Shown here piece by piece: positions 4,058 through 56,846 of a stretch of 64,000 nucleotides of DNA. Under the pieces are notes generated by a model. The model did no database searches and was not told the origin of the DNA. It saw only the letters and a list, made by a program, of their open reading frames with translations. Each line of letters opens with the position of its first letter. Position 1 is the stretch's first letter. The stretch lies in the NCBI RefSeq assembly GCF_055900595.2, contig NZ_CM148325.1; one strand, written 5' to 3'. Both the position numbers and the translations under genes were made by a program.

Positions 4058-4113
4058 AAACGGCGGCAGAGCAGTCACGGAGTAAAACTGATACCGCTAA
4101 ACGTCACCAGAAA
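4058..4113 (-). ncRNA. dicF: DicF small RNA (ftsZ-targeting sRNA of Qin-type prophages)
   Basis: Minus-strand sequence ttttctggtgacgtttagcggtatcagttttactccgtgactgctctgccgccg followed by a T-run; near-identical to DicF as I recall it. Confidence 0.8.
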
Positions 4114-9669: not shown

Positions 9670-9823
9670 TTTTATATTGGCGAGGTGACGTGAGTTAAGT
9701 AGAATTGCTGCGGGTGCTTGAGGCTATCTGCCTCAGGCATGAACACCAACGGCAGATAGAGAAAAGCCCCAGTTAACATTACGCGTCCTGCAAGACGCTT
9801 AACATTAATCTGAGGCCAATTTC

Positions 9824-10036
9824 ATGCTAGACACATGTAGGTTAGCCTCTTACGTGCCGGAAGGCAAGGAGAAGCAGGCTATGAAGCAGCAAAAGGCGAT
9901 GTTAATCGCCCTGATCGTCATCTGTTTAACCGTCATAGTGACGGCACTGGTAACGAGGAAAGACCTCTGCGAGGTACGAATCCGAACCGGCCAGACGGAG
10001 GTCGCTGTCTTCACAGCTTACGAACCTGAGGAGTAA
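9824..10036 (+). CDS. mok: mok-like reading frame overlapping hok
   Basis: 70-aa frame that starts upstream of and reads through hok, as in hok/sok loci. Confidence 0.5.
   Translation: MLDTCRLASYVPEGKEKQAMKQQKAMLIALIVICLTVIVTALVTRKDLCEVRIRTGQTEVAVFTAYEPEE
9881..10036 (+). CDS. hok: Hok/Gef-family type I toxin
   Basis: 51 aa MKQQKAMLIALIVICLTVIVTALVTRKDLCEVRIRTGQTEVAVFTAYEPEE, Hok family (HokD/RelF-like as I recall it). Confidence 0.85.
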   Translation: MKQQKAMLIALIVICLTVIVTALVTRKDLCEVRIRTGQTEVAVFTAYEPEE

Positions 10037-13918: not shown

Positions 13919-13945
13919 TAATAAGTATCATTTCGGGTAGGGATT

Positions 13946-14476
13946 TTATTGTTTAACCCATAATAATTCATTGACATTGAATCCCAACTTTTGAGCGGTT
14001 CGCACATAGTCTGCTTTTACTTTATCTGGAATAGTTGGGGTCCTTGCCAGAATCCATAGGTATTCTCTGTTCGAACCACTAACAAGAGCATACTTATACT
14101 CATCATCCAGTTTGATTACATTATAGCCACCATAGAAGGGGCCAAAAAACGAAACCTTCAACGCTGCAGTTTTAGTATCTCCAGTAAAGTATGCTTTACC
14201 TTCGCTCTCGCTCCATTTATTTTTCGTTGGATCGTATCCACGGTTAAGTACACGAATCCCTCCGTCGTTCCGTTTTCCATAAGTAGCGCTGACCTGCTCC
14301 AGACCACGTTCGAACCGGTTCTCGAGGCGAGCTATTTCATACCATTTTCCGAGGTAGCGGTTGGCGTCAAAATTTGTAATCGGCTGCACACCTTTAGGTG
14401 GTGTCGGGGCCTTACATGCTATAAGAGTGAAAGAGAGTGCAATGCCAGTCAACACAGGCCATAACTTCATAATCAA
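13946..14476 (-). CDS. blc: Bacterial lipocalin Blc-like outer-membrane lipoprotein (moron)
   Basis: Lipobox LIAC; KWYEIARLENRFERGLEQV and FFGPFYGGYNVI motifs match Blc. Confidence 0.85.
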   Translation of the reverse strand: MIMKLWPVLTGIALSFTLIACKAPTPPKGVQPITNFDANRYLGKWYEIARLENRFERGLEQVSATYGKRNDGGIRVLNRGYDPTKNKWSESEGKAYFTGDTKTAALKVSFFGPFYGGYNVIKLDDEYKYALVSGSNREYLWILARTPTIPDKVKADYVRTAQKLGFNVNELLWVKQ

Positions 14477-14662
14477 TCCTGTACTTTTGATAGTTGAGAG
14501 TAAGTATGAAAGATAGATGATTACGACCGATCACTTAAAGAACTTTCATACTATATTAGGAATAGTCCATAACAGAAAAATTGTCAGTGATGACGTCAGA
14601 AAGGCAATTTATTCCGTGCACTACACAGTTTATGTGTTAATGAATTAGTCAAGGGGGAGGAT

Positions 14663-15622
14663 ATGATAAAAAAACCTGTGATTGGAATCAGCGGTTGTTT
14701 GGCCGGTTCTGCTGTTCGTTTTGATGGTGGTCACAAAAGAGCTGACTTTTTAATGGACAAATTAGTGGAATGGGTAACATTCAGACCAGTATGTCCGGAA
14801 ATGGCTATAGGGCTGCCAGTTCCGCGTCCTGCTCTACGTCTTGTGCGCTCGAAGCAAGGAAATATACGGATGTGTTTCAGCCACGACCAGAATGAGGATG
14901 TGACAGAGAGAATGACAGAGTTTAGTCGTTCTTATATGCACAAATTAAAGGATGTATCGGGGTTTGTGGTTTGTGCTAAATCTCCCAGCTGTGGCATGGA
15001 GCGCGTGCGTGTCTATGATGAAAATGGTAATCGAGGTCGTAAAGATGGAGTGGGACTATTTACGAGCACTTTGATGGAAAAGTTTTCCTGGCTACCGGTT
15101 GAAGAGGATGGGCGATTACATGATCCAGTGCTTCGTGAGAATTTTGTTGAAAGAGTTTTTGCTTTGCATGAGCTCAATCACCTTTACAAGGAGAAATTAT
15201 CAAGAAGAGAGTTATTAGCTTTTCATAGTCGTTATAAGCTTCAGTTGTTGGCGCATAGTCAGGCAGGCTATAAAGATATGGGACCATTTGTGGCTGCAAT
15301 ACACGAGTGGGCGGACCTTGAATCATACTTTGAGGTGTATCGTGATAAGCTGATGGCGATTCTCAGAAAACCTGCATCACGTAAAAATCACACGAATGTG
15401 CTGATGCATATACAGGGGTATTTTAGTAATTACTTAAGTACACGCCAGCGTAAAGAGTTGACCGAGGTTATACTTAACTATCGCTTTGGCACATTGCCTC
15501 TTCTTGCGCCGTTGACTCTGCTGAAGCATTATCTGGGTGAGTATCCTAATGATTACTTGCTTACACAGAATTACTTCGATCCCTATCCGGAAGAACTGGC
15601 TCTAAGACTGATGGTGAATTAA
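14663..15622 (+). CDS. DUF523 (TudS-like) / DUF1722 two-domain protein (YbgA family)
   Basis: N-terminal GISGCLAG with further conserved Cys; C-terminal DUF1722-like half. Confidence 0.65.
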   Translation: MIKKPVIGISGCLAGSAVRFDGGHKRADFLMDKLVEWVTFRPVCPEMAIGLPVPRPALRLVRSKQGNIRMCFSHDQNEDVTERMTEFSRSYMHKLKDVSGFVVCAKSPSCGMERVRVYDENGNRGRKDGVGLFTSTLMEKFSWLPVEEDGRLHDPVLRENFVERVFALHELNHLYKEKLSRRELLAFHSRYKLQLLAHSQAGYKDMGPFVAAIHEWADLESYFEVYRDKLMAILRKPASRKNHTNVLMHIQGYFSNYLSTRQRKELTEVILNYRFGTLPLLAPLTLLKHYLGEYPNDYLLTQNYFDPYPEELALRLMVN

Positions 15623-16019
15623 CTGTATGCGATATCATCTGAAAGTGATGAGTTCCTGTATGCAGGATATTTACAATCGTAAAAACTACACTATGATACC
15701 CATAGTGTCAGTTTGTATAAAAATCCTGTTCACGCTGAAGAAAACATTGAGATGCAATTTAATGTTGGTAAACATACCAGCCCCAAAAGATTTTATTCAA
15801 TCTGTTTTTATATGAAGATATTTCAAGTGAATATTAAGAGTATATAATATTATTATTGCACGCAGCTATTATAATATAACAGATTAGTTTAATGATTTGT
15901 TTTTTGTGAGTTAAACACATGGTTTTATAGTTGTGATGCAATGAGATTTTCCTTATTGTTGAACTGGCGAATATTGATTTTCCACCTATACTTACCTGGT
16001 GTAACCCCAGTGATATCAG

Positions 16020-16742
16020 GTGGATAATATGCCATACATATGTTCTGTCATTTTGGTGTTGAACTCGTTTGGTGTCCGAATTGGTAAAGAAGATATTTTG
16101 TTTAAAAAAGGAAGTGCTGTCCTCATCGAATACAATTTAAAAGATCTTTTTTCGTCAAATACAGATCATCTAATGATCGTAGATGTTGAGGAGAAAACAG
16201 TTAATGATTTCTTTAAAAACTACACACTCTCACCTTTTTCTGTAAGAAGGTTTTATCCGTCATACTTGATAGTAGAATGTGAAGATTTTTCATTGTTAAG
16301 GAACTTGGTTGCATGCTTGAATTGTGATAGCAAAACCGTGGATGTAGTTAGAAATCAAATATCACTTGCATGTCTTGCTGTCTTATCTTCAGAGAAAATA
16401 GTGCAAAGTTTTTTGTTCGGAAGTCTTAATAGCTTAGGTTGTAAAGTTAAGGCTATTATTCACTCGGATATCTCAGCGTCATGGAGACTTTGTGATATAT
16501 CTTCAAGATTATATATGAGCGAGAGTTTGTTAAAAAGAAAATTAAAAGACGAAGGATTATCGTTTAGTAAATTAATTCTTGAAGAACGAATGATGATGGC
16601 GCAAAGATTATTGATCTACAGTAACCATACTGTCGGCAAGGTGGCGGGAATATGCGGGTATGACAATGCATCATATTTTGTAAGTGTTTTTAGAGGATAT
16701 TTTGGTGTGCCTCCGCACCAATATTTATCAAGATTTTCTTAG
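16020..16742 (+). CDS. AraC-family transcriptional regulator (AppY/YbcM-like moron)
   Basis: C-terminal AraC HTH (ICGYDNASYFVSVFRGYFGVPPHQY); AT-rich flanks. Confidence 0.8.
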   Translation: MDNMPYICSVILVLNSFGVRIGKEDILFKKGSAVLIEYNLKDLFSSNTDHLMIVDVEEKTVNDFFKNYTLSPFSVRRFYPSYLIVECEDFSLLRNLVACLNCDSKTVDVVRNQISLACLAVLSSEKIVQSFLFGSLNSLGCKVKAIIHSDISASWRLCDISSRLYMSESLLKRKLKDEGLSFSKLILEERMMMAQRLLIYSNHTVGKVAGICGYDNASYFVSVFRGYFGVPPHQYLSRFS

Positions 16743-16932
16743 AAGATATGATGTGATGGCATTTTATAAAGTTATTTTTTGAAGTGTAAGATTATACGAT
16801 ATTTTTAGCTACGCCAGAATAATTGCTGGCGTTTTTCTTTTTGAATAGATGTTCGGGCCTTACGCTAATGTAACTTCTTTCCTTCTTCGAACCAAACCGT
16901 GTACACCATCCGTTATCTGCGGAGGTGAGGCT

Positions 16933-17148
16933 ATGAAATCCATGGATAAGTTAACAACGGGCATCGCCTACAGCACCTCTGCAGGCAGTGCTGGCTACTG
17001 GTTTTTACAGTTGCTCGATAAAGTCACGCCCTCACAGTGGGCGGCAATAGGTGTATTGGGTAGTCTGGTATTTGGCATGCTGACGTATCTGACAAACCTT
17101 TATTTCAAGATTAAAGAAGACAGGCGTAAGGTTGCGAGAAGAGAGTAA
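16933..17148 (+). CDS. Phage 21 S21-type pinholin with dual-start motif
   Basis: [31 protein letters not shown]...IKEDRRK close to S21/EssD; strong RBS GGAGGTGAGG; second ATG at 16942. Confidence 0.85.
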
Positions 17149-17152
17149 TCCA

Positions 17153-17704
17153 ATGACTCAAGACTATGAACTGGTTGTGAAAGGAGTTCGCAATTTTGAG
17201 AATAAAGTGGCGGTAACTGTAGCCTTACGGGACAAAAAACACTTTGACGGTGAAATTTTTGACCTGGACATCTCGCTGGACCGTGTTGAAGGTGCCGCGC
17301 TGGAGTTTTATGAGGCAGCAGCCAGAAGGAGCATCAGACAGGTCTTCCTGGATGTTGCTGCCGGGTTATGTGAAGGGGATGAGCAGTCGCCGGAAAAGCG
17401 CCCCATAATTTTAGAGGCGCAGAATGTGTGGATAACCTACAAAGGAAAGCTACCGGGAAGAATTACTGGTTCTCTGAAGACGCCACCGACGGCATTGCGG
17501 TCAGAAAAAGATGATATTGAATCGCCCATTGAAAAACTGGAGGGCAGCGTCGCTGATCTGAATAAAAAATTGTCGGTGCTGATTCCTTCTGAAGATGAAA
17601 AAAAACGCCGCGATGAGCAGTTTGCGGCGTTTTACGATTATTGCATTGAAGTTACTCGCAGGAATTTTGTGAAGATTTTTGAGGAGGGTAAATCTCTTCA
17701 GTAA
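17153..17704 (+). CDS. YdfR-like (DUF1327) protein with long C-terminal extension
   Basis: MTQDYELVVKGVRNFENKV... matches the YdfR N-terminus as I recall it; about 183 aa here. Confidence 0.6.
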   Translation: MTQDYELVVKGVRNFENKVAVTVALRDKKHFDGEIFDLDISLDRVEGAALEFYEAAARRSIRQVFLDVAAGLCEGDEQSPEKRPIILEAQNVWITYKGKLPGRITGSLKTPPTALRSEKDDIESPIEKLEGSVADLNKKLSVLIPSEDEKKRRDEQFAAFYDYCIEVTRRNFVKIFEEGKSLQ

Positions 17705-17912
17705 GCTTATTGGCGGACGCTGCAATTAATTCAGGAAGGTCCGCAAGGTCATCTGTCAGTGGATATGATGAAAAATCGGCGGCAGTTCTGTTAAGAAGCG
17801 CTTTAACTAATTCCTTTTCCTTCTCCGGCAACAAGTTGATTAGAGCTACGACTGCTTGCCTGAGTGCGATTAAATCAGCAAAAGTTTGTTTAGGTAGATT
17901 TGTGTAATCCAT
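17652..17912 (-). CDS. Hypothetical protein (86 aa) antisense inside the lysis cassette
   Basis: ORF with GAGG RBS 6 nt upstream of its ATG; non-repetitive sequence; 3' end overlaps the ydfR-like gene convergently. Confidence 0.45.
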   Translation of the reverse strand: MDYTNLPKQTFADLIALRQAVVALINLLPEKEKELVKALLNRTAADFSSYPLTDDLADLPELIAASANKLTEEIYPPQKSSQNSCE

Positions 17913-18025: not shown

Positions 18026-19053
<1,028 letters not shown>

Positions 19054-19416
19054 ATTAATATTAAATCGGATTATTTTTAGCGCTGAATGTGAAATTTAAA
19101 TAAAAAGGACTCTTCCATGAGTCAAAATCCTTGAAATCTTAAGGGTAAGATAAAAGGTCATTAGACAGAATGACACGTTTTATTAATAAATAAAGCTATT
19201 GTTTCATTCGTGTGTTTTTCTTTACAAAAGTAATCCTTGCTATGGTTGGTTAATCATGCGTTAATGGTGTTCTGGTTTGTTACAAAATTATCTGAAGCAG
19301 TCATTGTTATAATTTTATTATTTGTACCTCTTGAGATTTCCTTGTTGGTTTTTCTCTCTGATATTTTTTTTCGGACCATTCTGCCCAAGGGCTAACTTCT
19401 TCAAAAGGTAATAATG

Positions 19417-19629
19417 ATGTCTAACAAAATGACTGGTTTAGTGAAATGGTTTAACCCTGAAAAAGGTTTTGGTTTCATCACGCCGAAAGATGGTAGCAAA
19501 GATGTGTTTGTCCATTTCTCAGCTATTCAGAGCAACGATTTCAAAACGTTAACTGAGAATCAGGAAGTCGAATTTGGTATTGAGAACGGACCTAAAGGCC
19601 CCGCGGCTGTTCATGTTGTGGCACTTTGA
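19417..19629 (+). CDS. cspI: Cold shock protein (CspI-like)
   Basis: [38 protein letters not shown]... cold-shock domain. Confidence 0.9.
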
Positions 19630-19828
19630 GGTAGATAATATTACAAACCATATTCACTTTAGATGCCCGTGTTGCCATGGTTCTCAGTATAGAACATCAT
19701 CTTTTGATGTTTCTGACAGGAATCCTTTCGGGGCAAAATGTATCTTTTGTAAATCAATGATGATTACATTTGATAATATTTCACAATACTTAAATGTTAG
19801 CCGTCTATCGTTAGATTTAAGAAAGTGA
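19613..19828 (+). CDS. Possible small Cys4 zinc-ribbon protein
   Basis: [10 protein letters not shown]...CIFCKS motif; weak RBS; start overlaps the csp stop. Confidence 0.3.
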
Positions 19829-19900
19829 AAATGAAGGCTCCTTCGGGAGCTTTTTTTCTTAGTGTCTAGTCGATGGATACTCACATAATACGGTAACATT

Positions 19901-20131
19901 ATGAAAAAAATAATAGTTTTTTTTAACTCTGAACCAGCAATGGTAGTGCCAGTGATGACCGGAGTTAACACCATCATGCGTGAATATCCAAATGGCGAAA
20001 CAACACACCTCACTGTAATGGCTGCAGGGTTTCCATCTCTGACCGGAGATCATAAAATCATTTATGTAGCAGCGGATCGACATGTAACTTCAGAAGAAAT
20101 TCTGGAAGCAGCAATGAGACTCTTGAATTGA
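19901..20131 (+). CDS. Hypothetical protein (76 aa)
   Basis: Clean ORF in the cold-shock moron cluster. Confidence 0.45.
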   Translation: MKKIIVFFNSEPAMVVPVMTGVNTIMREYPNGETTHLTVMAAGFPSLTGDHKIIYVAADRHVTSEEILEAAMRLLN

Positions 20132-20303
20132 TTTGATTCTAATGCATTGATAATAAATGATAATCATCTTTATCTGTTTGTGTGAAATTTAGACCGTCGT
20201 ATGTTGATTATTGCGATGTTTCATCTTATCTTTTATACGTTTGCTCCATATAATTGACACTACTGTGTACCAGGAAAGTCATAACAGACTAAAAGAGGAA
20301 ATG

Positions 20304-20477
20304 ATGAACATTGAAGAGTTAAAAACAAAAACAGAAGCAGATATTTCTGAATATATAACAAAAAAAATCATTGAGCTTAAGAAAAAGACCGGGAAAGAAG
20401 TTACCAGTATCCAGTTTACTGCACGGGAAAAAATGACTGGTCTTGAAAGCTATGATATCAAGATTGATTTAATCTAG
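20304..20477 (+). CDS. gnsB: GnsA/GnsB-family protein
   Basis: MNIEELKTKTEADISEYITKKIIELKKKTGKEVTSIQFTAREKMTGLESYDIKIDLI; AGAGGAA RBS. Confidence 0.8.
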   Translation: MNIEELKTKTEADISEYITKKIIELKKKTGKEVTSIQFTAREKMTGLESYDIKIDLI

Positions 20478-20770
20478 TCTGTTTAGTATTAGCATCAATT
20501 TCTCATCAGATGCTATTCAACAATACAAATTACCCATAAACCTCGTTTTTACGGGGTTTTGTTATATTTAAACATTACCGAATAGGTATAAATCTCGATT
20601 GTCGATGGTATTGGTTGTGTGACAATACCTAGTCTTTCCGGTATGCCTGATGAGAATACAAACGACAGATTATGTAAGGGAAACGCGCTGAATCTTTAAC
20701 TCTTTCATGCTGAGTGATTTGACGTTATATTTTTAGCCGTAAGTGAAGAGCAAACGCATGGAGCGACAAA

Positions 20771-20977
20771 ATGCATAAAGATCAATACACTGATGCCCCC
20801 TCCCAGGAGCAGGTTCGTGTAAAAACTATGCTTAATAGCACCATTTCGATGGGTTACCCGGATGTTGTAATTGCATGTATAGAACATCAAGTGTCTCTGG
20901 AAGCATTCAGGGCAATTGAGGCCGCGTTAGTAAAGCACGATAAGAATACGAAGGATTATTCCCTGGTGGTTGACTGA
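20771..20977 (+). CDS. Hypothetical protein (68 aa)
   Basis: ORF upstream of the terminase region. Confidence 0.4.
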
Positions 20978-21527: not shown

Positions 21528-22067
21528 ATGGAGTTGCTTATGTCAAATGTGAGCGGGATCGGTGATGCTTATTACTGGAGTGTTTTTAAAATCGCCGAGG
21601 CCTTTGGGCTTCACCGGGACACAGTAAAAAAACGGCTCCTCGCGGCCAACACTCCTGTGGCTGCGACTGTCAGGGGGAACCCCGTTTACGCCCTGCAGCA
21701 TGTCGGGCCCGCCCTGTTTAGTGTGAAGCATGAGGCAGCAGACTCTGTTCATGATCCATCCCGTATGGAGCCGAAAGAGAGAAAGGACTGGTACCAGTCT
21801 GAAAATGAAAGGATCAAGCTGGAAAAGGAGCAGCGAAAACTCATCCCAGTTGATGAAGTAGTCATCGTCTATTCGTCCATGAGAAAGGCTGTCGTCCAGG
21901 TTCTGGAGACAATTCCGGATGTTCTTGAACGCGATTGCGCTCTGACTCCTCAGGCCGTCGGCGTTGTACAGCAGGCCATTGATGACCTGCGATACACTCT
22001 TCAGGAAAAATCCTACGAGGCTTGTGCTGCTGAATTAATTCCTGATGAGGAAGGAGAGAGTCTCTAG
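21528..22067 (+). CDS. Terminase small subunit (Nu1-like); start may be 21540
   Basis: Position and size; immediately upstream of the large terminase. Confidence 0.75.
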   Translation: MELLMSNVSGIGDAYYWSVFKIAEAFGLHRDTVKKRLLAANTPVAATVRGNPVYALQHVGPALFSVKHEAADSVHDPSRMEPKERKDWYQSENERIKLEKEQRKLIPVDEVVIVYSSMRKAVVQVLETIPDVLERDCALTPQAVGVVQQAIDDLRYTLQEKSYEACAAELIPDEEGESL

Positions 22068-22075
22068 GAGGAATA

Positions 22076-24175
22076 ATGGGTTTTTCATCAGCCCGAAATT
22101 TGGGAAGGGACATATCGGCAGGATTTTCCCCACCACGTCGCATGCCGATTTCGGAGGCTGTTAAAAAATTCATGCGTGTTCCCAAGGGGGCTGGTAACTC
22201 GGTGCCATGGGATCCTGAACTGACACCCTACATCATTGAGCCCATGAACTGCCTGGCATCGCGTGAATACGATGCGGTGATTTTTGTTGGTCCTGCGCGA
22301 ACAGGGAAGACCATTGGTCTGATCGATGGATGGATTGTCTATACCATCGTTTGCGATCCTTCGGACATGCTCGTTGTGCAGATGACCGAAGATAAGGCCC
22401 GCGAGCATTCTAAAAAGCGCCTCGACAGAACGTTCAGAAGCAGTGCGGCGGTAAAGAAAAGAATGAGTCCACGTCGTAACGACAATAATGTCCATGATAA
22501 GACGTTCAGGGATGGCTCGTTCCTTAAAATTGGTTGGCCCTCGGTCAACATTATGTCGTCGTCGGATTACCGGTTTGTCGCCTTAACCGATTACGACCGT
22601 TTTCCGGAGAATATCGACAGCGAGGGTGATGGTTTCTCCCTGGCCTCAAAACGTACCACCACATTTATGTCCGCCGGGATGACTCTGGTGGAGAGCTCGC
22701 CGGGACGTGACATCTGCGACAGCAAATGGCGACGTAAGTCGCCTCATGAAGCGCCACCGACGACTGGTATTCTTTCCCTTTACAATCGTGGTGACCGCCG
22801 CCGCTGGTACTGGCCATGTCCGCACTGCGGTGAATATTTTCAGCCAGCTATGGATGCCATGACCGGCTACCGTAATGAACCGGATCCCTTTAAAGCCAGT
22901 GAGGCGGCGTATCTACTTTGCCCGCACTGCAGCGGCATTATCACTGCGGAGAAAAAGCGTGAGCTCAATAGTGCAGGAGTCTGGTTGCGTGAAGGTCAGG
23001 TCATTGATCGTAACGGCAACGTTTCCGGTGAACCGCGCCGCTCCCGTATCGCCAGTTTCTGGATGGAAGGGCCAGCTGCTGCGTATCAGACCTGGGCGCA
23101 ACTGGTTTACAAATTACTGACTGCAGAACAGGAGTATGAAGCGACAGGAAGCGAAGAAACACTCAGGGCGGTTATCAACACCGACTGGGGATTGCCTTAT
23201 CTTCCTCGTGCCAGCATGGAGCAACGAAAAAGTGAACTGCTTGAGCAGCGGGCAGAGCCAGTTCCTTCCTGCAGTGTGCCGGATGGCGTTAATTTCCTTG
23301 TGGCGACAGTGGATGTGCAGGCGGGACGTCATCGCCGTTTTGTGGTTCAGGTAACTGGCTATGGCAGTCGTGGCGAACGCTGGATTATTGATCGTTACAA
23401 TATCACGCAGTCATTGCGCAGTGACTGCGACGGGGAGAGCCAGCGAATTGATCCGGCCAGCTATCCGGAAGACTGGGATGTCCTGCTGACGGATGTTTTT
23501 CATAAAAGCTGGCCGCTGGCCTCCGATCCTTCTCAACAAATGCGACTGATGGCAATGGCGGTGGACTCCGGCGGTGAAGACGGGGTCACTGATAATGCCT
23601 ATAAATTCTGGCGTCGTTGCCGTCGTGATGGCCTTGGTAAACGTATTTACCTGTTTAAGGGCGACAGCATCCGGCGCGCAAAACTGATCACCCGTACATT
23701 CCCTGATAACACCGGACGAACGGGCCGACGGGCGCAGGCCGCAGGTGATGTGCCGCTCTGGCTTCTTCAGACGGATGCACTGAAAGACCGGGTGAATAAC
23801 GCGTTATGGCGTGACTCGCCAGGTCCCGGCTATGTGCATTTCCCTGACTGGCTGGGGAGCTGGTTTTACGACGAACTGACGTATGAAGAGCGGAGCAGTG
23901 ACGGGAAATGGAGTAAGCCGGGTCGCGGTGCCAACGAAGCTTTTGACCTGATGGTGTATGCCGAGGCTCTGGTCATTCTGCATGGATACGAAAAGATCCG
24001 CTGGCCGGATGCACCGGAGTGGGCGAGCCGGGAAACCTGGCTGGAGTGTGTCCCGGACAGTACCGAACCGTCACCCTCACCGGAACCGGTATCCACGCCT
24101 GTTAAAAAACAAAAACGGAAGAAAACAGTAACTGACGATGTTAACCCCTGGCTGACTTCCGGAGGATGGTTATGA
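22076..24175 (+). CDS. Terminase large subunit (lambda gpA-like)
   Basis: 699 aa with Walker A (GPARTGKT) and C-terminal nuclease-type regions. Confidence 0.9.
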   Translation: MGFSSARNLGRDISAGFSPPRRMPISEAVKKFMRVPKGAGNSVPWDPELTPYIIEPMNCLASREYDAVIFVGPARTGKTIGLIDGWIVYTIVCDPSDMLVVQMTEDKAREHSKKRLDRTFRSSAAVKKRMSPRRNDNNVHDKTFRDGSFLKIGWPSVNIMSSSDYRFVALTDYDRFPENIDSEGDGFSLASKRTTTFMSAGMTLVESSPGRDICDSKWRRKSPHEAPPTTGILSLYNRGDRRRWYWPCPHCGEYFQPAMDAMTGYRNEPDPFKASEAAYLLCPHCSGIITAEKKRELNSAGVWLREGQVIDRNGNVSGEPRRSRIASFWMEGPAAAYQTWAQLVYKLLTAEQEYEATGSEETLRAVINTDWGLPYLPRASMEQRKSELLEQRAEPVPSCSVPDGVNFLVATVDVQAGRHRRFVVQVTGYGSRGERWIIDRYNITQSLRSDCDGESQRIDPASYPEDWDVLLTDVFHKSWPLASDPSQQMRLMAMAVDSGGEDGVTDNAYKFWRRCRRDGLGKRIYLFKGDSIRRAKLITRTFPDNTGRTGRRAQAAGDVPLWLLQTDALKDRVNNALWRDSPGPGYVHFPDWLGSWFYDELTYEERSSDGKWSKPGRGANEAFDLMVYAEALVILHGYEKIRWPDAPEWASRETWLECVPDSTEPSPSPEPVSTPVKKQKRKKTVTDDVNPWLTSGGWL

Positions 24176-40623: not shown

Positions 40624-41330
40624 TGCACAGAAAACCCCCAGCTAGGCTGGGGGTTCCGGAAAGCTTTCAGCTTTGAGCCAGTTATTAAAACCCCTTTTGA
40701 TTTGTTAAAACACCTTGCGGTCTGGCAACTGCAAGTGTCAAACAAGAAATCAAAAGGGGGTCCCAATGGGGGACGAAAAGAGCTTAGCGCACACCCGCTG
40801 GAACTGTAAATATCACATAGTTTTTGCGCCGAAATACCGAAGACTGGCGTTTTACGGAGAGAAGCGTAGGGCGATAGGCAGTATTTTGAGAAAGCTGTGT
40901 GAGTGGAAAAGCGTACGGATTCTGGAAGCAGAGTGCTGCGCAGATCATATCCATATGCTTGTGGAAATCCCACCCAAAATGAGCGTATCCGGCTTTATGG
41001 GATATCTGAAAGGGAAAAGCAGTCTGATGCTTTACGAGCAGTTTGGGGATTTGAAATTCAAATACAGAAACAGGGAGTTCTGGTGCCGAGGGTACTATGT
41101 CGATACGGTGGGTAAGAACACGGCGAAGATACAGGACTACATAAAGCACCAGCTTGAAGAGGATAAAATGGGGGAGCAGTTATCGATTCCATATCCGGGC
41201 AGCCCGTTTACGGGCCGTAAGTAACGAAGTTGAATGCAAATGTCAGATCGTATGCGCCTGTTAGGGCGCGGCTGGTAACAGAGCCTTACAGGCGCATTTG
41301 AAAAACCTCCGGCTATGCCGGAGGATATTT
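40621..41330 (+). mobile_element. IS200-family insertion sequence (about 710 bp, boundaries approximate)
   Basis: Left-end hairpin cccccagctaggctggggg, second stem-loop over the RBS, tnpA, right-end hairpin cctccggctatgccggagg. Confidence 0.8.
40766..41224 (+). CDS. tnpA: IS200 transposase TnpA (HUH Y1 transposase)
   Basis: MGDEKSLAHTRWNCKYHIVFAPKYRR...HIHMLVEIPPKMSVS matches IS200 TnpA. Confidence 0.9.
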   Translation: MGDEKSLAHTRWNCKYHIVFAPKYRRLAFYGEKRRAIGSILRKLCEWKSVRILEAECCADHIHMLVEIPPKMSVSGFMGYLKGKSSLMLYEQFGDLKFKYRNREFWCRGYYVDTVGKNTAKIQDYIKHQLEEDKMGEQLSIPYPGSPFTGRK

Positions 41331-56532: not shown

Positions 56533-56577
56533 GCTCCGTTTAACATTCATTGAGAAAACTGATGCTACTGTGTCAAC

Positions 56578-56677
56578 GATCCGTTATCAGTGCAGGAAAA
56601 TGCCTGTTAGCGTAAAAGCAAAACACAAATCTATCCATGCAAGCATTCACCGCCGGTTTACTGGCGGTTTTTTTTCG
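56578..56677 (+). ncRNA. mgrR: Candidate MgrR small RNA (boundaries approximate)
   Basis: Intergenic position between dgcZ and mgtS; ends at intrinsic terminator ccgccggtttactggcggtttttttt. Confidence 0.45.
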
Positions 56678-56750
56678 CCGTCATAAAAATCAGGCCCCTT
56701 GTACACAGTTGTAACAAGGGGCCGGTTAGGTGAGGGATTATCTCCGTTCA

Positions 56751-56846
56751 TTAGTCATCCCATTTGTGGCTGAAATACGCGGCCAGAAAACCAGAAAATA
56801 AAATTATTCCCAGTACGGCCATAAAAACATTCATATTACCCAGCAT
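56751..56846 (-). CDS. mgtS: Small membrane protein MgtS (YneM), 31 aa
   Basis: Minus-strand MLGNMNVFMAVLGIILFSGFLAAYFSHKWDD; not in the ORF track because of size. Confidence 0.8.
   Translation of the reverse strand: MLGNMNVFMAVLGIILFSGFLAAYFSHKWDD

Follow-up and report, generated by a model that had tools for sequence, protein, structure and literature searches.

The window analysed here is a 64,000-nucleotide stretch of contig NZ_CM148325.1 (NCBI RefSeq assembly GCF_055900595.2), in which a cluster of five small genes occupies positions 19417-20977. The cluster is flanked upstream by an Rz spanin gene (DUF2514; 18556-19053) and downstream by the genes for the small (21540-22067) and large (22076-24175) terminase, and it belongs to an intact Qin-like prophage that has full head, tail and terminase genes and adjoins rspB, the site of Qin. 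All five genes lie on the plus strand, in the order cspI, ynfQ, ynfN, gnsB and a YbcW-like open reading frame (ORF). The original prediction had placed a csp gene, a gns gene and three small ORFs between the lysis and packaging modules, and both the ORFs and their position hold, with Rz on one side and the terminase genes on the other. Also present, and not listed in that prediction, are a remnant of ynfR, two intrinsic terminators and a cspA-type thermosensor RNA.

Many E. coli chromosomes match the cluster region at 100% identity; it is found in identical or near-identical form in 2,646 of 5,426 complete E. coli genomes, and shares 98.7% identity with phages HannyBb and mEp460_ev081. Its gene order, Rz-CspI-YnfQ-YnfN-GnsB(-YbcW-TerS), is kept in almost all of 80 IMG/VR loci. 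Selection on ynfQ, ynfN, gnsB and the YbcW-like ORF is purifying, and all three small ORFs, whose conservation the original prediction had made its test, are conserved under it. Pfam matches were obtained for cspI, ynfQ and gnsB; there was none for ynfN or the YbcW-like ORF, which matched only PHROG families of unknown function. PHROG likewise assigned gnsB to a family of unknown function and cspI to a cold-shock family, and gave no match for ynfQ. Two minus-strand ORFs in the region (19684-20013 and 19859-20083) were dismissed for want of annotation or family support.

The first gene, cspI (19417-19629, plus strand; named as such by PGAP), encodes a 70-residue protein that is identical to K-12 CspI at 70 of 70 positions, which turns the CspI-like protein of the original prediction into CspI itself. 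The protein matches the Pfam CSD family (PF00313; E = 1.6e-31, residues 5-69), and its translation carries the RNP1 (KGFGFI) and RNP2 (VFVHF) motifs within a single cold-shock domain of ~70 residues. In 1999, Wang et al. reportedly found K-12 cspI to be induced on temperature downshift. Upstream of the gene, a putative promoter at 19237-19265 (plus strand) comprises a -35 element, TTGCTA (19237-19242), and an extended -10 element, TGcGTTAAT (19257-19265). With 8 of 12 consensus matches it falls under the threshold of a generic promoter scan, which itself returned sites no more numerous than expected by chance. The promoter core, ATCATGCGTTAAT, reads the same in the window, at cspI and cspG of K-12 and at a divergent phage locus. 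We infer that this element is the cspI promoter and that transcription starts near 19270. The long 5' untranslated region (UTR) that would result and the cspI coding region are together covered by a cspA-type RNA thermosensor (19259-19675, plus strand), identified by an Rfam RF01766 match over the full model, 1-428, that scores 112.8 bits where the gathering score is 78 (E = 4e-29). Other Rfam matches in the region (SNORA44 and Atu_C8) were below threshold and treated as noise, the latter merely reflecting the terminator described below.

The second gene, ynfQ (19640-19828, plus strand), is annotated by PGAP as a coding sequence with an ATT start whose 62-residue product is named 'cold shock small protein YmcF'. 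The protein shares 59 of 62 residues with K-12 YnfQ and scores 112.6 bits with the YmcF-like Pfam family PF23641, whose cut-off is 27. It carries two CxxC knuckles, C9/C12 and C34/C37; among 34 diverse homologues from more than 15 genera, C9, C12 and C37 never vary, and C11 and C34 reach at least 90% conservation. The gene shows a dN/dS of ~0.1-0.23, and its family is conserved across Enterobacterales. The Cys4 zinc-ribbon candidate of the original prediction is, judging from the PF23641 match and these invariant or nearly invariant cysteines, the published cold-shock small protein YnfQ/YmcF. An AF2 model of moderate confidence (pLDDT 72) places short strands around both CxxC motifs, and the top Foldseek matches of this model were all zinc-ribbon proteins (TFIIE-alpha, eL43 and PolD), the best at an E value of 0.6 that is not significant. 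None of YnfQ, YnfN and the YbcW-like protein had a match in sequence searches of the PDB. Qin encodes one other small zinc-binding protein, YnfU, which was considered as a relative of YnfQ and set aside as not homologous (hhalign probability 1.5%). D'Lima et al. reportedly demonstrated, in 2017, cold induction of the YmcF and YnfQ proteins in K-12, and they are said to have mapped the ATT starts of both by experiment. The ynfQ entry reads 'Qin prophage, cold shock induced' (PMC11228462), and neither YmcF nor YnfQ is mentioned in the bioRxiv version of Weaver et al. (2019).

At the junction of cspI and ynfQ (19627-19642, plus strand), a GAGG Shine-Dalgarno sequence (19628-19631) overlaps the cspI stop codon TGA (19627-19629), and after a spacer the ATT start follows at 19640-19642, 10 nt past the stop. 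The zinc-ribbon gene had originally been described as an ORF at 19613-19828 that overlaps the csp stop. Such an ATG ORF does exist in the window, contains the CPCC...CIFC motif and runs across the TGA at 19627-19629, but the conserved start of the gene is, on comparison of related loci, ATT 19640 and not ATG 19613; because it starts there, past the stop, ynfQ does not overlap cspI. ATT is found at the ynfQ start position in 84 of 85 related loci, whereas ATG 19613 is directly trailed by a TAG stop in 68 of the 85, including K-12, and the window is a case where the upstream ATG happens to be open.

That the zinc-ribbon protein is instead the 71-residue product of the 19613-19828 ORF, made by ordinary AUG initiation overlapping the cspI stop, we regard as very unlikely. 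ATG 19613 is in frame and open to 19828 in the window, 8 contigs carry a deposited 'cold-shock protein' with exactly this 71-residue sequence, and annotations of some Citrobacter and phage entries give 70-71 residues. However, this ATG owes its existence solely to the His-Val codons of cspI, where a synonymous GTT-to-GTA change suffices to create the TAG that closes it, and it is preceded by no good Shine-Dalgarno sequence, whereas the GAGG is correctly spaced for ATT. The PF23641 model agrees with the shorter protein, its positions 1-61 aligning to residues 10-70 of the ATG ORF and thus starting only at residue 10, and the PGAP and K-12 annotations both use ATT. When the junction (19585-19700) was folded, no structure beyond chance was obtained (z = -0.08), and a local thermosensor hairpin over the ATT was left unsupported by this fold.

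The start at ATT 19640 is part of a wider pattern. Start codons of the YmcF family were surveyed in 106 species-level loci, comprising 62 that are csp-adjacent and 44 that lack csp. Where an intact csp gene is adjacent, only AUH starts (AUU, AUC or AUA) are available in 54 of 62 loci, compared to 5 of 44 where csp is missing, and 35 of the latter 44 have an ATG start (Fisher p = 1.2e-15 for start codon against csp adjacency, in a test that treats loci as independent of shared ancestry). The same survey speaks against the 71-residue product: among the 62 csp-adjacent loci, no canonical start lies within 20 codons upstream of the first cysteine in 38, and none lies at the conserved position (3-12 codons upstream) in 54. 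Across Enterobacterales, the csp stop codon is followed by GG or AGG in 51 of the 62 csp-adjacent loci, with a stop-to-start spacing that is mostly 6-10 nt.

This link between start codon and csp adjacency, a by-product of the analysis that may be new, suggests translational coupling. We propose tentatively, at what we judge to be somewhat less than an even chance, that the csp-ymcF/ynfQ junction is a conserved termination-reinitiation device, in which a Shine-Dalgarno sequence overlapping the csp stop and, 6-10 nt on, an AUU, AUC or AUA start kept weak would leave the Cys4 protein to be made solely by ribosomes just off Csp, as a small fixed fraction of Csp output, and that lineages which lost csp switched to AUG. 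If true, this would constitute a natural form of translational coupling that sets the ratio of a very abundant protein to a rare partner. A terminator hairpin starts 5-7 nt past the ynfQ/ymcF stop codon and, speculatively, a ribosome terminating on ynfQ could block this hairpin, so that read-through into ynfN and gnsB would depend on translation of ynfQ.

In the window, the hairpin is that of an intrinsic terminator at 19833-19861 (plus strand), which was identified by a terminator scan and closes the cspI-ynfQ unit with a GGCUCC-UUCG-GGAGC stem-loop followed by seven U. It is kept in all relatives examined, namely divergent phage loci, K-12 ymcF, Salmonella and Dickeya. An extended stem around it (19803-19878; -32.1 kcal/mol, z = -5.5) has mismatches in K-12 and is absent from the divergent phage group, and was treated as not conserved. 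The scan identified a second intrinsic terminator after gnsB (20538-20567, plus strand), with a 9-bp stem and a T-rich tail. Overlapping the first hairpin is the remnant of ynfR (19831-19869, plus strand), consisting of 12 codons, MKAPSGAFFLSV, and flagged by PGAP as 'too short'. The gene is cut by a TAT-to-TAG change at 19867-19869 and, as read from this change, is inactivated in the window. K-12 YnfR is a 21-residue protein that is cold-induced (PMC6001520); among 71 loci, 59 have this form whole and 9 have it truncated. The ynfR gene, which overlies a conserved terminator, is probably a lineage-specific ORF.

The next gene, ynfN (19901-20131, plus strand), is present in its full-length form of 76 residues, called 'protein YnfN' by PGAP, and matches phrog_3425 over residues 1-76 (E = 2e-55). 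Of 71 loci, 57 keep the 76-residue ORF intact; in K-12, loss of 1 nt from a T8 run leaves a YnfN of 51 residues. Purifying selection acts on the N-terminal 25 codons, and the MKKxxVFFN N-terminus is kept in homologues of 51-59% identity. An exhaustive HMM search yielded 46 cluster representatives only, nearly all of ~75 residues and matching from residue 1, which describes a small stand-alone family with no tie to a larger domain in that search. On the alignments, the K-12 reference YnfN is a frameshift remnant of a conserved 76-residue protein.

The fourth gene, gnsB (20304-20477, plus strand), encodes a 57-residue protein with 53 of 57 residues identical to K-12 GnsB, so that the GnsB-like protein of the original prediction is GnsB. 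It matches Pfam PF08178 over model positions 1-54 of 54 (E = 2.1e-33) and the solved GnsA structures 4xo1 and 4xo2 (E = 8e-20). A TATAAT hexamer at 20249-20254 (plus strand), conserved in K-12 and Tritos, is a possible -10 element of gnsB; a promoter scan upstream of the gene found no good -35 element, and a weak promoter at this site is possible. According to the literature, cells that overexpress gnsA or gnsB contain more unsaturated fatty acids, and their growth at low temperature is rescued.

Pfam and PGAP call this family a toxin ('GnsA/GnsB family addiction module toxin'), and ymcE-gnsA is given in some papers as a type II toxin-antitoxin pair, with YnfN occupying the position of YmcE and both proteins having 76 residues. 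From these points it could be argued that the prophage is stabilised by YnfN and GnsB acting as a toxin-antitoxin (addiction) pair, with any cold-shock role secondary. We consider this highly improbable. YnfN was compared with YmcE as a candidate homologue and rejected, the forced alignment giving 17 of 76 identities, and ynfN and gnsB do not overlap, being 172 nt apart. The two also occur independently, with ynfN at 13 species-level loci and gns at 9 but both at only 4, and of 58 phage loci, 7 have a frameshift in gnsB without losing ynfN. No conserved toxin-antitoxin partner for GnsB was found in these comparisons, PADLOC returned no defence-system match for any small protein of the cluster, and the published gnsA and gnsB phenotypes are suppressed growth defects, not toxicity.

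The last gene is a YbcW-like ORF of 68 residues (20771-20977, plus strand) that matches phrog_657 (E = 5e-48) and has a GGAG Shine-Dalgarno sequence 8 nt upstream. A homologue of it, a hypothetical coding sequence of 68 codons, is annotated at the right end of phage Lambda imm21 together with a ribosome-binding site of its own; between the two copies dN/dS is ~0.4, and the C-terminal 50 residues are nearly identical. This ORF is a conserved lambdoid gene adjoining the packaging region, without a known link to cold shock. The original prediction had counted it in the cold-shock cluster, but it is a gene that lambda has as well.

Taken together, we consider it very likely that a Qin-type lambdoid prophage here carries cspI-ynfQ-(ynfR)-ynfN-gnsB as a cargo (moron) module, with the YbcW-like gene next in line, and that the module carries host cold-adaptation cargo and not a phage structural or lysis function. 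The cold-shock moron reading first put forward for these genes gains from the identities of CspI and GnsB, from the PF23641 and RF01766 matches and from transcription in a related lysogen: RNA-seq of the Tritos lysogen found cspI at 93x and ynfN at 27x the prophage background, and classed them as morons (PMC9928086). Further marks of a moron are the promoter-like element conserved with cspG, the terminators after ynfQ and gnsB, and the different cargo that lambda holds in the slot between Rz and cos. The cspI-ynfQ pair appears to be a textbook moron because it has a csp-type promoter, a cspA-type thermosensor and a terminator of its own.

We also weighed whether the cluster belongs to the late operon of the phage and works for lytic growth, say in late mRNA translation or packaging, in place of benefiting the host. 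All five genes lie on the late-operon strand between Rz and terminase, where Q-antiterminated transcription should traverse them, and the YbcW-like gene is kept beside the packaging region even in lambda. Nonetheless this explanation is very unlikely, as the promoter-like element, thermosensor and terminator of cspI-ynfQ are its own, and the uninduced Tritos lysogen transcribes cspI and ynfN highly. Moreover, K-12 has a paralogous set, cspG-ymcF-ymcE-gnsA, at a site where no prophage is annotated, many genera carry csp-ymcF pairs on the chromosome, and in lambda csp, ynfQ, ynfN and gnsB are missing and bor stands in their place.

For the host-cargo module, we envisage the following sequence of events. 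In the lysogen, the csp-type sigma-70 promoter near 19237-19265 would give rise to a transcript with a 5' UTR of ~145 nt, and this UTR and the cspI coding region, to go by the Rfam match, would fold as a cspA-type thermosensor. As for other members of that family, the mRNA would be unstable and yield little protein at 37 °C, whereas low temperature would stabilise it and allow its translation, and CspI, an OB-fold RNA chaperone, would be produced in bulk. Ribosomes ending at the cspI UGA would then meet GAGG and, 10 nt on, the inefficient AUU start, so that little YnfQ (62 residues) would be made; the arrangement and its conservation are observed, and the coupling that they point to would set the CspI:YnfQ ratio. 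The intrinsic terminator 5 nt past the ynfQ stop would halt most transcripts, and read-through, possibly supplemented by the weak promoter before gnsB, would supply YnfN (76 residues) and GnsB, which when overproduced is reported in the literature to suppress cold-sensitive mutants alongside its effect on unsaturated fatty acids. During lytic growth, by analogy with lambda, Q-modified late transcription should cross the entire cluster.

The cassette itself is already known: the annotations of K-12 Qin and of thousands of E. coli genomes include every gene of it. What the analysis contributes is a corrected gene model, with ynfQ starting at ATT 19640 and leaving the csp stop clear, the recognition of the 51-residue K-12 YnfN as a remnant of a conserved protein, and evidence against GnsB as a toxin paired with a neighbouring gene. 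The lead of most note is the non-AUG start that is tightly tied to direct adjacency to the csp stop across Enterobacterales.

Among the closest known systems is the cryptic prophage Qin of K-12, where cspI-ynfQ-ynfR-ynfN-gnsB (b1552, b4724, b4749, b1551 and b1550) have the same order, orientation and place, after rzpQ, and which has the ATT start, the terminator and the prophage site adjoining rspB in common with the window. The two differ in that the prophage of the window is intact and Qin is cryptic, that ynfN encodes 76 residues in the window and 51 in K-12 owing to the 1-nt deletion, and that ynfR is cut to 12 codons in the window by its nonsense change. In addition, the window lacks the DUF1398 gene (ydfO/ybcV) and has the YbcW-like gene instead, and the upstream ATG that is open in the window is closed by TAG in K-12. 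The K-12 cspG-ymcF-ymcE-gnsA locus repeats the same arrangement, with a csp gene, 10 nt, an ATT-started Cys4 small protein, a terminator hairpin and a Gns protein, and its promoter core is common to cspI of the window. Its proteins are more distant (CspG 55/70, YmcF 42/62 and GnsA 36/57 identities to those of the window), its middle gene, ymcE, is unrelated to ynfN and overlaps both its neighbours and, unlike the cluster of the window, it lies outside any annotated prophage.

Among phages, Tritos (LF82), mEp460_ev081, HannyBb and 2H10 carry the same cassette between spanin and packaging genes at 92-99% nucleotide identity. The 92%-identical Tritos prophage has an extra opposite-strand DUF1398 gene (ybcV) between gnsB and ybcW, and its ynfN is annotated at 51 residues although the 76-codon ORF is intact. 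Lambda fills the same slot, from Rz/Rz1 to cos, with bor as moron cargo and another ORF, both on the opposite strand, in place of csp, ynfQ, ynfN and gnsB, while the right-end ORF of Lambda imm21 is the counterpart of the YbcW-like gene, with ~82% nucleotide identity and 53 of 68 amino acids identical to the window.

The cassette at 19417-20977 of this Qin-like lambdoid prophage is already known, every gene in it being covered by existing annotation. All of the ORFs of the original prediction were found in their places when the sequence was read for ORFs, and all lie on the plus strand: cspI (19417-19629, 70 aa; PGAP and K-12 annotation, Pfam CSD), ynfQ (19640-19828; ynfQ/ymcF "cold shock small protein" in PGAP, Pfam PF23641 YmcF-like at 112.6 bits), ynfN (19901-20131, 76 aa; PHROGs phrog_3425), gnsB (20304-20477; Pfam PF08178, GnsAB; phrog_2301) and a 68-aa YbcW-like ORF annotated as a hypothetical protein (20771-20977; phrog_657). 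Existing annotation also has a ynfR remnant, a "too short" pseudo-CDS, at 19831-19869 (+). The location between the lysis and packaging modules likewise held, with the lysozyme gene and the Rz spanin gene (18556-19053, DUF2514) upstream and the small (21540-22067, DUF1441/phrog_141) and large (22076-24175) terminase genes downstream. Identity to the K-12 proteins is 70/70 for CspI, 59/62 for YnfQ and 53/57 for GnsB; the chromosomal paralogues CspG, YmcF and GnsA match the window proteins at 55/70, 42/62 and 36/57 residues, respectively. The interpretation as a cold-shock moron cluster stood as well, with the exception of the start assigned to the zinc-ribbon ORF and the counting of the last, lambda-type ORF as a cold-shock gene.

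The zinc-ribbon ORF had been proposed to begin at ATG 19613, overlapping the cspI TGA at 19627-19629. In PGAP as in K-12, ynfQ is annotated from ATT 19640, and a comparison of 85 related loci (80 from IMG/VR, with K-12 Qin, the K-12 ymcF locus, the temperate phage Tritos and the window) contradicts the upstream start: the codon at the start position is ATT in 84 of 85 and ATC in one, while the upstream ATG is directly followed by TAG in 68, K-12 included, and its frame is open in only 16, including the window. ATG 19613 is a by-product of the cspI His-Val codons, and a synonymous GTT to GTA change in cspI is enough to shut the frame. The first position of the Pfam PF23641 model falls on residue 10 of the ATG-19613 ORF, and a GAGG Shine-Dalgarno sequence overlapping the cspI stop lies 8 nt before the ATT, which is itself 10 nt from the stop. 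Both YmcF and YnfQ are reportedly cold-induced, with ATT starts mapped, in the work of D'Lima et al. in J Proteome Res, 2017. The ynfQ entry reads "Qin prophage, cold shock induced" (PMC11228462).

The relationship between this start codon and csp adjacency is the sole lead in the cassette with some novelty. Scanning one genome per species with a GAKCIFCK-encoding pattern gave 120 stretches and 106 usable YmcF-like loci. Where an intact csp ends directly upstream (n=62), 54 loci offer only AUU, AUC or AUA, four ATG and four GTG/TTG; where csp is absent or decayed (n=44), the corresponding counts are 5, 35 and 4 (Fisher p = 1.2e-15 over the 106 species-level loci, not corrected for phylogeny). 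Start codons of the csp-adjacent loci include ATT in 43, ATC in 12 and ATA in 4; the csp stop runs into GG or AGG (TAAGG, TGAGG, TAAAGG) in 51/62, and stop-to-start distances are mostly 6-10 nt. The window junction at 19627-19642, where the Shine-Dalgarno sequence overlaps the csp stop, is an example. In several stand-alone loci, such as that of K. oxytoca, a decayed csp 3' end still precedes the ATG. The simplest reading is that YmcF/YnfQ may be translated by ribosomes terminating on csp: retention of the weak start would hold its level far under that of Csp, and upon loss of csp the start codon would turn into ATG. RNA folding across the cspI-ynfQ junction gave no support for local structure.

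Conservation of the zinc-ribbon ORF, which the original prediction had named as its own test, was borne out across genera, with dN/dS against the window of 0.11-0.24, comparisons at dS 0.65-0.9 included. YnfQ homologues occur in Citrobacter, Salmonella, Klebsiella, Enterobacter, Kosakonia, Raoultella, Yokenella, Kluyvera, Shimwellia and Dickeya, and YmcF-like loci were also found by DNA pattern in Proteus, Providencia, Morganella, Xenorhabdus, Pantoea, Erwinia and Serratia. The cysteines (CPCC...CIFC in the window) form two CxxC knuckles with 21 residues between them; among the homologues C9, C12 and C37 never vary, and conservation reaches at least 90% at C11 and C34. AF2 gave a moderate model (pLDDT 72), whose top Foldseek matches, none of them significant, were without exception zinc-ribbon proteins (TFIIE-alpha, eL43, PolD). 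Because of these non-significant matches and the moderate model, we regard the zinc ribbon of YnfQ as a well-motivated prediction rather than a demonstrated fold. A second small CxxC...CxxC family, YnfU (PF23499), also adjoins csp genes, namely cspB in K-12 Qin (L003, 6306-6476) and a CSD gene in Shimwellia (L087, 1704-1871); homology between YnfU and YnfQ was not detectable by hhalign (probability 1.5%).

A full-length cspA thermoregulator RNA spans 19259-19675 (Rfam; 112.8 bits, gathering score 78). The core ATCATGCGTTAAT of the putative cspI promoter, preceded at 17 nt by TTGCTA, is the same in cspG and in a divergent phage copy, and intrinsic terminators follow ynfQ (19833-19861) and gnsB (20538-20567). 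The cspI-ynfQ pair is thus a self-contained promoter-gene-terminator unit that fits the classical definition of a moron. In a Tritos lysogen, cspI and ynfN are transcribed at 93x and 27x the prophage background (PMC9928086), levels consistent with partial read-through at the first terminator. This terminator sits within a long extended stem (19803-19878; MFE -32.1 kcal/mol, z = -5.5) in which the ynfQ 3' end pairs with the ynfR region; the stem is probably not a conserved element, since it is mismatched in K-12 and absent from the divergent phage group.

K-12 YnfR is a cold-induced 21-aa peptide (PMC6001520) whose ORF starts 2 nt past the ynfQ stop and crosses the terminator hairpin. The 21-aa form is intact in 59/71 loci; in the window, TAT to TAG at 19867-19869 leaves 12 codons. 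The ynfR ATG is missing from the divergent phage group and the ymcF locus, and the hairpin is present in all loci compared, which points to the terminator rather than the peptide as the conserved element. The chromosomal ymcE ORF also crosses the equivalent hairpin and encodes a similar peptide (LPRGAFF compared with APSGAF).

The 76-codon ynfN ORF is intact in 57/71 loci, and the 51-aa form of K-12 (L003, 3455-3610) arose by loss of one T from a T8 run. Over codons 1-25, divergent homologues (dS >1) show 10.5-11.5 synonymous changes at 16.8 sites and 7.5 nonsynonymous changes at 58.2 sites. MKKxxVFFN is kept in homologues of 51-59% identity and the K-12 start, Met26, is not. This selection and conservation show that the real gene encodes the 76-aa protein, the K-12 51 aa being a remnant. 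Tritos ynfN is annotated as 51 aa despite an intact 76-codon ORF. Frameshifts at homopolymer tracts occur in a minority of related loci, 14/71 for the ynfN T8 (19921-19928) and 7/58 for the gnsB A8 after codon 20 (20355-20370), and may reflect either on/off variation or assembly error.

Structures of GnsA have been solved (4xo1, 4xo2), and in the literature overexpression of GnsA or GnsB increases unsaturated fatty acids and rescues low-temperature growth defects. The Gns family owes its "addiction module toxin" label to the proposal that ymcE and gnsA form a pair. YnfN and YmcE are unrelated, ynfN and gnsB are 172 nt apart, and across species ynfN follows ymcF at 13 loci, gns at 9 and both at only 4, independently; a YnfN-GnsB toxin-antitoxin pair was therefore rejected. 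The YbcW-like ORF has a GGAG ribosome-binding site and a homologue in phage Lambda imm21, whose right end is annotated with a hypothetical ORF of 68 codons (53 of 68 residues identical; dN/dS ~0.4). It is a conserved lambdoid gene beside the packaging region, with no known link to cold shock.

The 2-kb cassette stretch is present in 2,646 of 5,426 complete E. coli genomes, at 100% identity to many E. coli chromosomes, and in phages HannyBb and mEp460_ev081 (98.7% identity) and Tritos (92%). Of 80 IMG/VR loci, nearly all keep the order Rz-CspI-YnfQ-YnfN-GnsB(-YbcW-TerS). The wider window holds an intact lambdoid prophage adjoining rspB, where the cryptic prophage Qin sits in K-12, and the window prophage also carries DicF, hokD/sok and dicB. 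Rfam families above gathering score elsewhere in the window are DicF (4061-4112, -), sok with hokD (9712-9886, +) and the Hfq-binding sRNA families STnc490 (40633-40756, +) and STnc560 (56544-56757, +). An 86-aa ORF (17652-17912, -; phrog_2572) interrupts the lysis cassette between a truncated ydfR pseudogene and the lysozyme gene. From the Q antiterminator to the holin (~13940-16750, from 14897-17693 of stretch L085) lie lipocalin-family (opposite strand), YbgA-family and helix-turn-helix genes.

Lambda has bor in the slot where the window prophage has the cspI-ynfQ unit. The DUF1398 gene of Tritos and K-12 Qin (ybcV/ydfO) is missing from the window prophage, where a 293-bp gap (20478-20770) separates gnsB from the YbcW-like ORF. 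In the second moron slot, between Q and the holin, K-12 Qin has cspB and cspF, whereas the window prophage carries a different cargo set.
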